UHGV virus genome: UHGV-0118721
Strand: one strand, 5' to 3'
Length of the DNA: 13,237 bases
Origin: a virus
Positions within the stretch are counted from its first letter, which is position 1. Each line of letters begins with the position of its first letter. The translations under genes were made by a program, and so were the position numbers. Shown in pieces: positions 6,274-10,632 of this stretch. The notes beneath the pieces are model-generated. The model made no database searches, had not been told where the DNA came from, and was given only the letters and a program-made list of their open reading frames with translations.

Positions 6274-6412
6274 GTGAGATCCTCATTTTTGGGTGTTAGA
6301 ATCCCCGGACCATTGATAGCGCCCATTGGGTTAACTTTGGTTTTAATGTTGTTTCCGGTGTAACTTTGGTCGGTACCACCGGACGTAGATCCCGCCTTGC
6401 GCGGGTTTTACG

Positions 6413-6971: not shown

Positions 6972-7265
6972 ATGAAATCAGTAACTAAGCCATGTCCTAT
7001 TTGTGGTGAAGATTCTTTGTCTTTTAACCAGACAAATCAGTTGGTTAACATCAAAGTAAAACCACCAACTATTCGTGAAGTTCCATCAGTGGTTTACGTT
7101 TGCGATACTCACGGATGGTTTTCACTTTCAGAACAGATAAACAGACTCGTCACATCTAATGACGACCCTGCGGCTAAGCAAAAACTGGCTGTTATTGTCA
7201 AAGAGCGATATGTGCCGGAACAGGATCAGCCGTTAGCCCTGAAACCTATTGAGTCGCTCGCATAA
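6972..7265 (+). CDS. Small zinc-finger protein (97 aa; CPICG...C-x2-H, resembles a YgiT/MqsA-type N-terminal zinc ribbon)
   Basis: SD-like AAGGA upstream of the ATG at 6972. Ligand pattern C8, C11, C44, H47. Oriented opposite to the surrounding leftward genes, as sieB is in Rac, but it has no transmembrane segment so it is not SieB-like. Confidence 0.5.
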   Translation: MKSVTKPCPICGEDSLSFNQTNQLVNIKVKPPTIREVPSVVYVCDTHGWFSLSEQINRLVTSNDDPAAKQKLAVIVKERYVPEQDQPLALKPIESLA

Positions 7266-7515
7266 GGTCTTTTCGGCTCTCGCTGCGATATCCCAGGCGG
7301 TACATTTTCACGTAGGCTTTGCCGCGAGGAATGCCGCCTGTTTTGTTGAATCTCTGCTGGGCGCGGCGATGGTGTTTTGCTTCAGGGCTGTTTGAACCTT
7401 TCCCGCCATTCGATCGAGAACTTGGGAGTTGCATTGGCTTTTGGCGTGAATAGAATTTACGTGCCCAGCATGCTCCAAAGCCGATCATGCCTGTTTTCTT
7501 CGTATTACCTTTCAT
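7246..7515 (-). CDS. Hypothetical basic, low-complexity protein (89 aa); candidate N-like antiterminator by position only
   Basis: First leftward ORF downstream of the predicted pL-like promoter. Rich in Lys/Arg/Gly/Ser. SD GAGGGG upstream of the ATG at 7515. Its 3' end overlaps the convergent + gene by 20 nt, which lowers confidence. Confidence 0.3.
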   Translation of the reverse strand: MKGNTKKTGMIGFGACWARKFYSRQKPMQLPSSRSNGGKGSNSPEAKHHRRAQQRFNKTGGIPRGKAYVKMYRLGYRSESRKDLMRATQ

Positions 7516-7594: not shown

Positions 7595-7623
7595 ATGATA
7601 GCTAAGGCGATTTATTTTATCAA
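7595..7623 (-). promoter_or_regulatory. Candidate leftward early promoter (pL-like): -35 TTGATA (7618-7623), 17-nt spacer, -10 TATCAT (7595-7600), with overlapping operator-like half-sites
   Basis: Read on the minus strand: TTGATA-17-TATCAT. Sequences resembling the ATCGC-N4-GCGAT operator motif of the OR region occur at 7621-7636 (AATCGC ttaa ACGATA) and 7597-7612 (GATAGC taag GCGATT). Confidence 0.35.
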
Positions 7624-7960
7624 TCGCTTAAACGATAATATTGTGATTTTGCCGATTATTATTTGATTTATAAAGTGATTTATTTTTGTATGAGATGCGT
7701 GATATGCTCAAAAAAACACCAGGCGGGGATATTGATATGGGTTTAGGAATGGATATGTCACGTGATGAGCTGCTGGAAGATCGCGCTGCTTTCATGGCTG
7801 GCGAGATTGGCGGTGCAGTTGTCGAGTAGATAATCAACGGTGTGGTGATAAGTCGAGATGCGATAGTAGATAGCTTGGAGACTAAGCGTCGCGCGGTTGG
7901 AAATGTGATTCACAAAGGAGTGTTGTGGGATGTCACTGCTATGGTGAGAAAAGGAATATG

Positions 7961-7983
7961 AAAACCGGCATAATGCCGGTTTA
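7961..7983 (-). terminator. Intrinsic terminator after the membrane-protein gene (analogous in position to lambda tIMM)
   Basis: Minus-strand RNA: stop UAA, then stem ACCGGCA / loop UUA / UGCCGGU (7964-7980), then UUUUCAUAUUCCUUUU. The palindrome also reads as a hairpin on the + strand. Confidence 0.6.
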
Positions 7984-8610
7984 CTTTGATTTTTCCTGTT
8001 GGTGAAGTACTCGTGGAGTAGTTGGTTCTTGAGGTAATTGGATGATAACAGGTTGCTGCGCTACTGGTTGAACTACGGGCGGATCACTCTTCAAGGCAGA
8101 AACAAGACTAGGTAATGCAACGACAACCGCAATGATAACGCCAAAAATAGCAAGCCTAGTGGAAATACCTGATTGAATACCGCCAATCGCAGTGTTTATT
8201 CCTGTAATTTGCCCTTGTATACCTTCGAATTTGCCATTGATGGCTTTTACATCCCCATCAACGCTATCCATTTTCCCTTCAATTTTAGAAGAAATAGAGC
8301 TAATAGATGAATTGAGCGATGCCAGCTGAACGTTCATATTCTCGCGTGACAAAGCCATTTCAGCTCTAATCGAAGATGCAATGGACTCCATCTCCGCCTT
8401 ATTGGCAGCTAGAAGTGCTTGCATTTCTTCACGGCTAACTGATGACATTTCATTTCCCCCATCAGTTTCATTAGCTTCATCTGTTGATTTGATAAAGTTA
8501 GTATACATTTCTTCTTTATCGACGCGTAGTCTGTTTTGAACATTGGGGTACAGGTCATCTTTATCAATGCCAGAACCGCAGTCTGGGACAGCTTTGAGAG
8601 ATGGGCCCAT
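7981..8610 (-). CDS. Membrane-anchored coiled-coil protein (209 aa): N-terminal soluble coiled-coil region, one transmembrane helix, Pro/Gln-rich C-terminal tail; candidate exclusion/abortive-infection effector
   Basis: ATG at 8610 overlaps the upstream gene stop (ATGA); the track's GTG at 8613 is one codon upstream. Heptad-like Ser/Ile-rich region (SLNSSISSISSKIEG...GIQGQITGINTAIGGIQSGIS), hydrophobic helix LAIFGVIIAVVVALPSLVSAL, then tail PPVVQPVAQQPVIIQLPQEPTTP. Low-GC sequence. Confidence 0.75.
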   Translation of the reverse strand: MGPSLKAVPDCGSGIDKDDLYPNVQNRLRVDKEEMYTNFIKSTDEANETDGGNEMSSVSREEMQALLAANKAEMESIASSIRAEMALSRENMNVQLASLNSSISSISSKIEGKMDSVDGDVKAINGKFEGIQGQITGINTAIGGIQSGISTRLAIFGVIIAVVVALPSLVSALKSDPPVVQPVAQQPVIIQLPQEPTTPRVLHQQEKSK

Positions 8611-8972
8611 CACTTCCCATCCTCTCCTTGATCTTCTTTTCTTTTATTAATCAGTGTCCTGGCTTTTTTATAAGAAAAAAGCAGTACATGTGCGCAGTGA
8701 TCACACGTGATTCGAAATAGTGGCATACCGCCAGGATATGTCACAGCACTATCAGTATCAGGTTTGTATTGTGCATAACTAAGTGTTTCGATCACATGAT
8801 GTTTTGGCTGATTTTCTTCTACATCAAGATCAAAGGCACCAACTACAGACCATGACTGGTTCCCGCAGATTTGGCAAGTTATTGGTTTTTTGAATGAATT
8901 TATGAAATCAATGAACTCATCCGCTGTGATAATCTCGGAGTTTGCTTCACTATGAAATAATTCCGATTTCAT
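8610..8972 (-). CDS. Zinc-ribbon protein (120 aa; CxxC at C33/C36 and C90/C93); first gene of a two-gene operon downstream of the repressor
   Basis: Track ORF starts at TTG 8996; the first ATG (8972) has SD AAGGA 8 nt upstream. Motifs ITCQICG and ITCDHCAH. Low-GC sequence, 44 nt after the repressor stop. No family recognised by eye. Confidence 0.7.
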   Translation of the reverse strand: MKSELFHSEANSEIITADEFIDFINSFKKPITCQICGNQSWSVVGAFDLDVEENQPKHHVIETLSYAQYKPDTDSAVTYPGGMPLFRITCDHCAHVLLFSYKKARTLINKRKEDQGEDGK

Positions 8973-9016
8973 AATTATGATCCTTTTCTGGGCCAAAGTA
9001 GATAAAAAGTACAGTT

Positions 9017-9700
9017 TTACAATCGGTTATACTTTATTGATTCATGAATCAATGCCTTACCCATTACGTAGAGTTGATCCTGATTACCTTCGTTAATGTA
9101 CCACTTCTCATAAGCTGAGTTATCAGACAAAACTGCCAACCTATCGCCCTGCATCTGCAAGCGCTTCACATGGAAATGTTGTCCGAAAACGAACGCATAA
9201 ACACCGTCGACCTTGAAGTTTCTTACAGAAATATCGAAAAACAATCTGTCACCAGACTGTATAGTTGGACACATGCTGTCGCCATCGACCGTCATTACTT
9301 TTACGTCTTCCTGAGAACGATTTCCGAAGAGTGAACGAGCGTGTTCGGTTGTGAACTCAATGGCGTGTAGAACCTCAACAAACTCAGAAATCATGAAAGA
9401 ACCTGGCCCCGCGCTAAATGTCAGGTCAAGTACGTCAACTCTGAATATGTTTGAGTCTTTTTTTGTCGCGGTAATGGGAGGCGGTAGCTGGCCATCGTTA
9501 CGCATCGGTCCGGATCCCGTGGAAAGCCATTCAGGGCGAACATTGAGAACAGAAGCTATCTCGACCGTTTTTCTTGAGCTTGATGCACCATTTAGCAGCT
9601 TGTTAACACTTGACTGTGCCATGCCAACTGCCTTAGCTAGCTTGCCCTGTGTATAACCCGCCTCATTCATTGCGCGATCTAATCGCTCAGAAAAACTCAT
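9017..9700 (-). CDS. CI-like prophage repressor: N-terminal XRE-type HTH plus C-terminal S24 (LexA-like) autopeptidase domain
   Basis: Start chosen at ATG 9700 (MSFSERLDRAMNEAGYTQGKLAKAVGMAQSSVNKLL = HTH). The track's upstream extension is read-through of the promoter region. C-terminal VDGDSMCPTIQSGDRLFFD...HFHVKRLQ matches the Ser/Lys dyad context of S24 peptidases. Confidence 0.9.
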   Translation of the reverse strand: MSFSERLDRAMNEAGYTQGKLAKAVGMAQSSVNKLLNGASSSRKTVEIASVLNVRPEWLSTGSGPMRNDGQLPPPITATKKDSNIFRVDVLDLTFSAGPGSFMISEFVEVLHAIEFTTEHARSLFGNRSQEDVKVMTVDGDSMCPTIQSGDRLFFDISVRNFKVDGVYAFVFGQHFHVKRLQMQGDRLAVLSDNSAYEKWYINEGNQDQLYVMGKALIHESIKYNRL

Positions 9701-9729
9701 TAAAGATACCCCCCTAATAACCTTCATAA

Positions 9730-9803
9730 ATATTATCGCCACAGCGATTAATAAGCAAAAAATCGCATAGGCGATTGACATTCGTTAAAGCGATAAACAT
9801 AAT
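9730..9803. promoter_or_regulatory. Divergent immunity switch: repressor promoter (minus; -35 TTGCTT 9753-9758, -10 TAATAT 9730-9735), rightward promoter (plus; -35 TTGACA 9775-9780, -10 CATAAT 9798-9803), and palindromic operators
   Basis: Both promoters have 17-nt spacers. Operator-like palindromes: AATCGC-ATAG-GCGATT (9761-9776, perfect arms, overlapping the rightward -35) and TTATCGC-CACA-GCGATTA (9733-9750, overlapping the repressor promoter spacer/-10). A further GCGAT half-site at 9790-9794 lies in the rightward spacer. Confidence 0.6.
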
Positions 9804-9830
9804 CAACCTAAATTGATAGAAGGAGCGATT

Positions 9831-10061
9831 ATGAAAAACCCTGCTGTAGAAAAAGCGATTGCAATCGCCGGTAGTCAGAAAGAGCTAGCGAAGCGATGTG
9901 GTAAGGCCCAATCCACGGTCTGTGACTGGTTAAATGGGAAAAAACAAATCTCCCCGATCCATGTTCCTGTTTTGGTAAAGGCAAGCGAAGGACAGATTCA
10001 AGCTCATGAATTCCGTCCCGACCTTCCTGAATTGTTTCCGCATCCACATTCAGCCGCCTGA
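9831..10061 (+). CDS. Cro-like / YdaS-family HTH regulator (76 aa)
   Basis: ATG at 9831 with SD AGGAG at 5-nt spacing (the track's TTG at 9813 is unlikely). HTH-like segment SQKELAKRCGKAQSTVCDWLNGKK. Divergent from the repressor across the operator region. Confidence 0.75.
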   Translation: MKNPAVEKAIAIAGSQKELAKRCGKAQSTVCDWLNGKKQISPIHVPVLVKASEGQIQAHEFRPDLPELFPHPHSAA

Positions 10062-10092
10062 CCGGCGGCGCTAACCATCAAGGGAAAGCACT

Positions 10093-10632
10093 ATGCAATC
10101 ACTTACGTTTTACCAGGATACAGGAGTACCGCAACAAGCGGTGATAAATCGCGCTCAAACCTATAAGGGGCCGTGTCACGAAGATATTCGAAATGCCGTT
10201 CGTTCATGGGCGGGTGTAGATGGTCAGGATGTCGTTTCTGCTCTGATCGTCGAAGAGTACCGGGCGCAGGGTGGTTATGACATCACTTTCCCTGACGATC
10301 TCTGCCGAAAGCGGCAGAAGCTTTTCCGCTTCCTGGATAACCATTTCAACAGCGAACGGTACCGTGAGAACGTTCGCCAGCTGACTCCGGCAATCCTGGC
10401 GGTCCTGCCGATTGAATACCGCAACCGTCTGCTACCAGAAGACAACGTTATGGCCCGCCTGGCTCGGCTGGAGAAAGAAACCAGCGAAGCGAAGATTGCC
10501 GTCGCAATGGATGCGCCACGCCATCAAAAGCTGAAAGAGTTGAGCGAGGGGATCGTGGAGATGTATCGCGTTGACCCTGGGTTAACCGGTCCACTGATGG
10601 AGATGGTGCAGATGATGCTGGGGGCTATATGA
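10093..10632 (+). CDS. YdaT-like (CII-position) regulatory protein (179 aa)
   Basis: SD AAGGGA upstream of the ATG. Lies immediately after the cro-like gene as ydaT does in Rac. Segments HEDIRNAVRSWAGVDGQDV and QKLFRFLDN resemble YdaT as I recall it; family assignment unverified. Confidence 0.5.
   Translation: MQSLTFYQDTGVPQQAVINRAQTYKGPCHEDIRNAVRSWAGVDGQDVVSALIVEEYRAQGGYDITFPDDLCRKRQKLFRFLDNHFNSERYRENVRQLTPAILAVLPIEYRNRLLPEDNVMARLARLEKETSEAKIAVAMDAPRHQKLKELSEGIVEMYRVDPGLTGPLMEMVQMMLGAI

Follow-up and report, generated by a model that had tools for sequence, protein, structure and literature searches.

The closest described counterparts of the locus reported here are the immunity switches of phages 434 and lambda and of CP-933P from E. 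coli O157:H7. In phage 434, operators of the form ACAA-N6-TTGT are arranged as OR1-3 together with OL. Phage lambda uses 17-bp operators, and the fold of its Cro is unrelated to that of YdaS-type Cro proteins. In CP-933P, YdaS acts as Cro; its footprints fall in the intergenic region that the repressor also protects, and PRM, PR and PL are all repressed by it, with an OL/PL analogue present (PMC8630535). Our analysis of UHGV-0118721, using a window of 13,237 nt (the whole stretch of DNA analysed, to which all coordinates refer), indicates that positions 9701-9830 very probably constitute the OR of a lambdoid prophage immunity switch, in which a 434-type CI and a YdaS-family Cro would read 14-bp ATCGC-N4-GCGAT operators. 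Direct evidence underlies the sites themselves, how they are arranged, and the way they track the CI and Cro recognition helices.

The window covers the early region of an E. coli lambdoid prophage that is present in 5 of 5,426 complete E. coli genomes. Its genes are ordered as integrase, RecE/RecT, a kil-like gene, small ORFs, cI, cro, ydaT and replication genes. Three of these surround or follow the region of interest:

9017..9700, minus strand: cI-type repressor, 227 aa; HTH_3 (PF01381, 33 bits) and Peptidase_S24 (PF00717, 62 bits); phrog_4
9831..10061, plus strand: cro-like gene, 76 aa; YdaS-family HTH (PF15943, 53.9 bits, cut-off 30); phrog_35
10093..10632, plus strand: YdaT-family gene, 179 aa; PF06254 (88.5 bits, above cut-off); phrog_163, CII-like activator; CII-equivalent position

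The repressor and cro-like genes expected from the sequence-only reading do flank the region, as a 227-aa HTH_3/Peptidase_S24 CI and a PF15943 Cro. They diverge from starts at 9700 and 9831, 130 bp apart, and the PF15943 gene is followed by the PF06254 gene, which is the order of a YdaS/YdaT module, with both above their cut-offs. Among solved structures, the N-terminal domain of CI is most similar to the 434 repressor (E 4e-5, residues 2-62); the structures matched are 2r63/1per, with E values of 4e-5 to 1e-4 over residues 2-64. The recognition helix of CI is QSSVNKLL, and its C-terminal S24 domain contains Ala97-Gly98, Ser142 in GDSM and Lys180 in VKRL. Cro has the recognition helix QSTVCDWL; compared over its whole sequence, it shows no paralogy to the N-terminal domain of CI. 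An upstream in-frame ATG at 9727, which would give a CI of 236 aa, was rejected as the cI start: in near-identical relatives this frame is disrupted by an indel in a C-run, and all other relatives begin at the MSFSERL/MGFSERL position. The cargo genes that separate cI from OL gave no match with PADLOC, and an Rfam scan for put-like and other RNAs gave only a sub-threshold match to isrB.

Four putative operators and two promoter-like sequences were located between cI and cro:

9735-9748: O1 operator, ATCGCCACAGCGAT = ATCGC-CACA-GCGAT, exact; inside the PRM spacer; placed as lambda OR3
9762-9775: O2 operator, ATCGCATAGGCGAT = ATCGC-ATAG-GCGAT, exact; between both -35 elements
9781-9794: O3 operator, TTCGTTAAAGCGAT = TTCGT-TAAA-GCGAT, two mismatches; fills the PR spacer; placed as lambda OR1
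9816-9829: O4, probable weak operator, ATAGAAGGAGCGAT = ATAGA-AGGA-GCGAT, two mismatches; over the cro Shine-Dalgarno (SD)
9775..9803, plus strand: PR-like promoter, TTGACA-17-CATAAT, 11/12 (consensus scan)
9730..9758, minus strand: PRM-like promoter, -35 TTGCTT at 9758..9753, 17-bp spacer, -10 TAATAT at 9735..9730

Most of this layout had been read from the sequence alone. The two palindromes were correctly described as sharing ATCGC/GCGAT arms, which occur as exact ATCGC-N4-GCGAT at 9735-9748 and 9762-9775. The span of 9761-9776 given for the second also holds, O2 having 6-bp arms over that span, whereas the 9733-9750 given for the first is too wide, with T9734 and T9749 unpaired beyond 5-bp arms. 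The GCGAT half-site reported at 9790-9794 is present and forms the right half of the imperfect 14-mer at 9781-9794. As for the promoters, the rightward TTGACA-17-CATAAT was recovered where it had been placed, and the leftward TTGCTT-17-TAATAT is readable in the sequence but weak (7/12, from 3/6 and 4/6); it fell under the threshold of the consensus scan because its -35 matches at only three of six positions.

O2 shares 1 bp with the PR -35 and is separated by 3 bp from the PRM -35. The predicted PRM start is at about 9723, upstream of the cI SD GGGGGG (9715..9710), which places the centre of O2 at about -45.5. The lambda counterpart is centred at -42 of PRM, and activation of PRM by CI is therefore uncertain here. 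Spacings between successive operators are 27, 19 and 35 bp, which differ from those of lambda and from the 24-25 bp of the sister classes described below. The perfect palindromes are O1, at PRM, and O2, between the promoters, and the O3 site in the PR spacer is imperfect, an arrangement opposite to the simple expectation that the strongest CI site lies over PR. At O4, the cro SD lies within the central 4 bp. Its role as an operator is only suggested by these data, since the SD and start codon also constrain this region. A further palindrome, ATCAA-N6-TTGAT at 9802-9817, separates the PR -10 from the cro SD. It was rejected as a candidate for an additional operator; it is broken in one relative (L006) and missing in most.

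The motif is concentrated at this locus and at one other. O1 and O2 are the only exact ATCGC-N4-GCGAT sites in the 13,237-bp window, where 0.02 are expected, and none of 200 dinucleotide-preserving shuffles gave two. Allowing up to one mismatch, the window contains five sites against 0.60 expected (0/200 shuffles reach five), and all but one of them are at OR or OL. The density of GCGAT/ATCGC half-sites across the window peaks at about 9670-9870, with 10 per 200 bp. Searching the motif across the prophage had been proposed as a check on the switch, and in 25 kb of a 99.9%-identical prophage clustered sites were found only at OR and OL. The second cluster is composed of the following:

7598-7611: OL-type operator, ATAGCTAAGGCGAT = ATAGC-TAAG-GCGAT, one mismatch; overlaps the -10 of the PL-like promoter
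7623-7636: OL-type operator, ATCGCTTAAACGAT = ATCGC-TTAA-ACGAT, one mismatch; abuts the -35 of the PL-like promoter
7595..7623, minus strand: PL-like promoter, TTGATA-17-TATCAT, 10/12 (consensus scan)

The two sites are 25 bp apart and bracket the leftward promoter, which is predicted to drive the early-left operon (first ORF 7246-7515, minus strand). They correspond to the half-sites already noticed about 2.1 kb from OR at a leftward promoter, each now seen to be a 14-mer with one mismatch. The accompanying suggestion of an OL-like second operator set is borne out by conservation. The pair (ATAGC-N4-GCGAT, then ATCGC-N4-ACGAT at 25 bp) is kept in most relatives with enough flanking sequence, 0.86-2.9 kb from OR on the cI side, and is also found in Klebsiella phage Mulock. 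Many relatives have a third OL site 21 bp beyond the pair; it is degenerate in the window (7643-7656).

Since a megablast of 9000-10100 against sequenced phages returned zero matches, relatives were sought with the protein sequences and with the operator motif. When IMG/VR was scanned with the pattern alone (two ATCGC-N4-GCGAT sites separated by 8-16 nt), at least 120 viral contigs matched. Among the matches listed, 84 have the 13-nt gap of the window, and all but two of these 84 are flanked by a CI with QSS[VI][NH][KR]LL or a Cro with QST[IV]CDW, the remaining parts of these proteins being divergent. In the one-genome-per-species data, this OR occurs in Citrobacter, Leclercia, Enterobacter, Trabulsiella and Escherichia.

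Alignment of the 52 unique OR variants from the matches listed showed that both promoters are conserved together with the sites. The PR -35 (TTGACA, fused to the end of O2) and -10 (cATAAT) are near-invariant; for PRM, the -35 TTGC[TC][AT] and the -10 T-A-n-n-n-T are conserved, 17 bp apart. Although outside the search pattern, an imperfect O3 is found at +19 from O2 in 50 of the 52 variants, in forms such as TTCGC..GTGAT, ATCTC..GCGAT and the ATCGC..GVGAT type (e.g., ATCGC..GTGAT). The O4 position in most relatives reads ATAGC-TGAG-GTGAT, over the cro SD. The central 4 bp behave differently from site to site: there are 17 variants at O1 (64% A/T), nearly always ATAG or its complement CTAT at O2, and 97% A/T at O3. 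An additional half-site, GCGAT at 9855, falls in cro codons 9-10, where the GCG codon is kept in 26 of 27 unique variants and neighbouring synonymous sites vary.

Relatives with other operators were informative as well. An IMG/VR scan with the CI protein gave 293 relatives, of which 80 were kept. Those with a CI at least 89% identical to that of the window keep both exact palindromes, whereas those at 69-78% have none, because their N-terminal domains differ. The differing relatives carry palindromes of their own, also of the 5-N4-5 form, in the cI-cro region and at similar OR positions. A change of operator is accompanied by a change in the opening three residues of both recognition helices, that of CI and that of Cro, as follows:

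CI QSS, Cro QST: ATCGC
CI QPS, Cro QPS: ATAGC (ATAGC..GCTAT)
CI QPT, Cro QPT: ATACG (ATACG..CGTAT)
CI QPA, Cro QPA: ATAAC (ATAAC..GTTAT); this class includes phage HK639
CI QAA, Cro QAA or QQA: ACAAC (ACAAC..GTTGT)

Four of the five motif classes have their own motif again 1.4-2.6 kb away on the cI side, there as two copies spaced by 24-25 bp. A matrix of six helix classes against five motifs is diagonal in OR, with no cross-matches there, and at OL it is diagonal except for ATACG; from the QPT/ATACG class, one OR site and zero OL recurrence were recovered. In two of the other classes, a one-mismatch copy of the class motif also lies at the cro SD (AAAGC-AGGA-GCTAT in relative L007 and ACTAC-GGAG-GTTGT in relative L058). 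The leading Gln of the helix and the A at operator position 1 are constant across classes. Both are likewise found in 434, where a helix starting with QQS is paired with the half-site ACAAG.

This helix-operator covariation strongly supports the prediction that the palindromes are operators of both CI and Cro, and it is the strongest evidence for that assignment. The CI/Cro switch proposed by the sequence-only reading is also supported, as the palindrome changes with the CI helix and the OR layout stays similar. A substitution-pattern test among the closest same-immunity relatives found 0 half-site changes among about nine variable columns (P ~0.1); these relatives are about 98% identical, too similar for the test to be informative.

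Of the alternatives, the best surviving is that the palindromes are operators for CI only, with the YdaS-like protein binding elsewhere or being a toxin/antitoxin-type protein. Its Pfam family is indeed named 'YdaS toxin', and the lack of whole-sequence paralogy to the CI N-terminal domain noted above would fit. Nevertheless, the Cro helix varies from class to class in parallel with the CI helix at its first three residues, and the described YdaS of CP-933P binds in the intergenic region of its repressor and acts on all three promoters (PMC8630535). We therefore consider a CI-only role improbable.

The sites could instead be bound by another regulator, for example a host factor or the YdaT/CII-like protein. 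Proteins of the YdaT family form tetramers and bind DNA at inverted repeats (PMC9986795). However, the window shows no enrichment of the CP-933P YdaT motif (TTGATT-N6-AATCAA) and has no copy of it near 10000-10100, at the cro-ydaT junction. The diverged YdaT of the window may use a different site. Further, phage Mulock has identical operators with a lambda-type CII in place of YdaT, and changes in the motif go along with changes in the CI and Cro helices. Another regulator at these sites is thus very unlikely.

It was also considered whether the palindromes act as minus-strand RNA hairpins or intrinsic terminators that stop, for example, antisense or PRE-type transcripts. A terminator scan did return three minus-strand matches on the palindromes, with T-rich tails after each, and RNA stems are also expected to change sequence while keeping palindromy. 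But the stems have only 5-6 pairs and fold at -5.5 to -6.1 kcal/mol (z -1.3 to -2.2), and the imperfect sites (O3, both OL sites and O4) keep half-site identity and break pairing. In addition, the palindromes occupy promoter spacers that precede the two predicted starts, and their sequence tracks the CI/Cro recognition helices. With such weak stem energy and imperfect sites, we reject the terminator reading as extremely improbable. The arms are short (5 bp), yet chance occurrence in an AT-rich intergenic region is excluded for practical purposes by the shuffles, none of which reached the observed counts, and by the retention of the sites in dozens of diverged relatives.

Based on the proposed role of these sites as CI and Cro operators, and by analogy with lambda, 434 and CP-933P, we can outline how the switch may work. 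In the lysogen, CI dimers would occupy O2 and O3 cooperatively and block PR. CI at O2 may stimulate the weak PRM, and CI at OL would shut PL, possibly through an OL-OR loop. With high CI, or with Cro present, O1 would be filled and PRM shut; Cro is expected to use the same sites with a different preference, which, if opposite to that of CI, would make the switch bistable; the helix covariation and the CP-933P precedent speak for this only indirectly. RecA-stimulated self-cleavage at Ala97-Gly98 would inactivate CI, so that PR fires and Cro takes over. An A/T-rich operator centre favours binding of the 434 repressor. If this rule carries over, which is speculation, CI would prefer O3 and the OL sites, and O1, with its CACA centre, would be weak, as in lambda logic.

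A broader idea is tentative, and we think it possible but rather doubtful. The operator array may exceed that of classical phages, by O4 on the cro ribosome binding site (RBS) and the GCGAT in cro codons 9-10. In that case, CI or Cro might additionally work at points beyond the start of PR transcription, by forming a roadblock or through extra cooperative anchors. The allelic series, for its part, may represent a direct-readout code for re-targeting 434-type HTH domains.

The O2 sequence was found on neither strand in any paper reached by our literature search, which covered searchable papers. The architecture is textbook lambda/434, and immunity with ATCGC-N4-GCGAT and QSS/QST occurs in sequenced, uncharacterised phages; to the lambda/434 paradigm, this work makes no conceptual addition. 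Its contribution is that an uncharacterised type of lambdoid prophage, spread over the Enterobacteriaceae (Escherichia, Klebsiella, Citrobacter, Enterobacter, Leclercia and Trabulsiella), now has operators, promoters and a predicted immunity group assigned to it. This assignment predicts which prophages and phages are homoimmune, Klebsiella phage Mulock being an example. The most useful by-product is a natural series of orthogonal 434-type repressor/operator pairs in a similar architecture, which could serve as synthetic-biology parts or in studies of HTH recognition.

Compared with known systems, the locus shares with lambda the logic of PRM and PR placed back to back and an OL 1-3 kb away. 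Its likeness to 434 is closer in detail: the operators are 14 bp long, with conserved outer bases and a variable centre (arms kept, 17 O1 centres), three main sites lie amid the divergent PR and PRM with a second set at PL, and the repressor has an S24 cleavage domain. In contrast, the half-site is ATCGC rather than ACAA, and the ACAA...TTGT form is not that of these operators. The locus should therefore be of the same structural type as 434 without having 434 immunity, and the two should be heteroimmune. Other features that set the window apart from 434 are its YdaS-family Cro (PF15943), a cI leader with an SD, the 27- and 19-bp spacings and a possible fourth site over the cro RBS.

In both CP-933P and this locus, PR is followed by genes for a Cro of the YdaS type and a CII analogue of the YdaT type; also shared are cargo genes in the rexAB position, multiple intergenic repeats, and a PL/OL analogue beyond the repressor operon (PMC8630535, PMC9986795). 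The repressors are different. That of CP-933P is PaaR2, encoded by a leaderless gene that heads the paaR2-paaA2-parE2 toxin-antitoxin operon, whereas the 227-aa HTH and S24 CI of the window is not of the PaaR2/RacR type. The operators differ too, being 18-bp inverted repeats with the half-site GTTTAGTAA in CP-933P and ATCGC-N4-GCGAT in the window.

Phage HK639 has a CI that is 72% identical overall to that of the window, and a similar OR/OL architecture. Its OR and OL each contain three ATAAC-N4-GTTAT operators, and its recognition helix is QPAIQKM; the papers on HK639 found by the literature search do not treat its operators. Since both helix and operator differ, HK639 should be heteroimmune.

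The nearest sequenced phages are from Klebsiella. In Mulock (MN098327) and the prophage-derived ST13-OXA48phi12.5, ST11-VIM1phi8.1 and ST512-KPC3phi13.1, the CI N-terminal domain is 81% and Cro 78% identical to those of the window; over the full length of CI the figure drops to 62-63%, owing to differing C-terminal domains. Mulock is the one phage of these four whose DNA was read, the ST phages being compared as proteins. Its operators are unannotated, and our literature search found no study of them. The OR layout of Mulock is identical to that of the window (ATCGCCAAGGCGAT, 13 nt, ATCGCATAGGCGAT-TGACA, ATCTCTTTTGCGAT). Its OL consists of ATAGCCAAGGCGAT, ATCGCTAAAACGAT at +25 bp and ATCGCATAAGTGAT another 21 bp beyond that, the third site being intact, unlike in the window, and the PL counterpart is TTGACC...TATTAT. 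OL lies 0.86 kb from OR in Mulock versus 2.1 kb in the window, because Mulock has no cargo genes after cI. The cII gene of Mulock is of the lambda type (PF05269), whereas the window has ydaT. That OR and OL are the same despite this difference indicates that the motif tracks CI and Cro rather than the CII-type gene, and from the shared OR and OL we predict that Mulock and the prophage in the window have the same immunity specificity.

We have identified an operator-like palindrome inside cro, the rightward YdaS-family gene of the immunity switch, and several further repeats around it, which are located in the window as follows:
9855-9868, part of 9846-9868 (cro codons 6-13), operator-like palindrome GCGATTGCAATCGC
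10495-10508, YdaT-codon counterpart of an operator-like site found in relatives, ATTGCCGTCGCAAT, with two mismatches
9802-9817, palindrome ATCAA-CCTAAA-TTGAT, in the interval from the -10 of the cro promoter PR to the cro SD
10004-10033, direct repeat TCATGAATT / TCCTGAATT at the cro 3' end, copies 21 bp apart
9709-9716, C-run in the cI leader/SD (reverse complement GGGGGG)

The cro-internal palindrome is perfect and contains both operator half-sites in swapped order (GCGAT-N4-ATCGC), while encoding the peptide K-A-I-A-I-A. Its Ala codon is GCG in 26 of the 27 unique cro variants of the ATCGC immunity type, and adjacent synonymous positions vary. The V-E codons upstream of GCGAT retain GTAGA, giving GTAGA-AAAA-GCGAT, which is similar to the weak candidate operator O4 (ATAGA-AGGA-GCGAT). 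Further, the equivalent cro codons of two classes of relatives with other operator half-sites, L007 and L015, read as the half-sites of their own class (GCTAT and GTTAT, respectively). Based on these sequence patterns, the palindrome may serve as an additional weak operator.

Many same-immunity relatives carry an exact ATCGC-N4-GCGAT within the gene 3' of cro, at +746 to +750 from operator O1. The codons of its counterpart in the window specify I-A-V-A-M of YdaT. In those relatives, the exact site could result by coincidence from coding for I-A-x-A-I, or it could act as an additional operator.

On the leftward side, between cI and the second operator set (OL) and beyond, four open reading frames (ORFs) were considered:
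8610-8996 (-), 128 aa, phrog_4293, unknown function
7981-8613 (-), 210 aa, phrog_5820, unknown function
7686-7982 (+), small ORF or pseudogene, lying between OL and the cargo genes
7246-7515 (-), 89 aa, very basic, phrog_29236, unknown function, first ORF of the PL-like operon

The 128-aa and 210-aa ORFs occupy the rexAB position between cI and OL, and neither gave a Pfam match above cut-off or a PADLOC match; inspection of the translation by eye gave the 210-aa product a coiled-coil-rich look with a hydrophobic C-terminal segment. The distance between the switch region (OR) and OL ranges from 0.86 to 2.9 kb in relatives, and in the Klebsiella phage Mulock the OL sites lie ~115 bp from the cI end with no annotated gene in the gap. 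These observations are consistent with a swappable cargo slot between cI and OL, the gene-free gap having been checked in Mulock only. A near-identical E. coli record labels the ORF at 7686-7982 a hypothetical protein and marks an internal stop in it; the ORF ends at a good stem-loop terminator (7962-7982). A divergent rightward promoter at this locus could likewise be under the control of the OL sites. The 89-aa protein was not recognised as an N homologue, and an Rfam scan detected no put-like RNA; an N-like antiterminator or another RNA- or DNA-binding protein is possible. Rfam also returned a sub-threshold match to the Hfq-binding sRNA isrB at 6315-6411 (+); its score of 28.6 bits (E 0.084) falls short of the gathering score, 35.

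Among near-identical relatives, the cI-leader C-run differs in length or sequence (C6, C5, TC4), thus placing an upstream ATG (9727) in or out of frame with cI. The palindrome at 9802-9817 is disrupted in the relative L006 and is replaced by ATCGC-TTTAAA-CTGAT in most relatives. Two copies as short as those of the cro 3' repeat may reflect chance; the position of this repeat matches that at which a PRE/CII-type site is expected from lambda and CP-933P.
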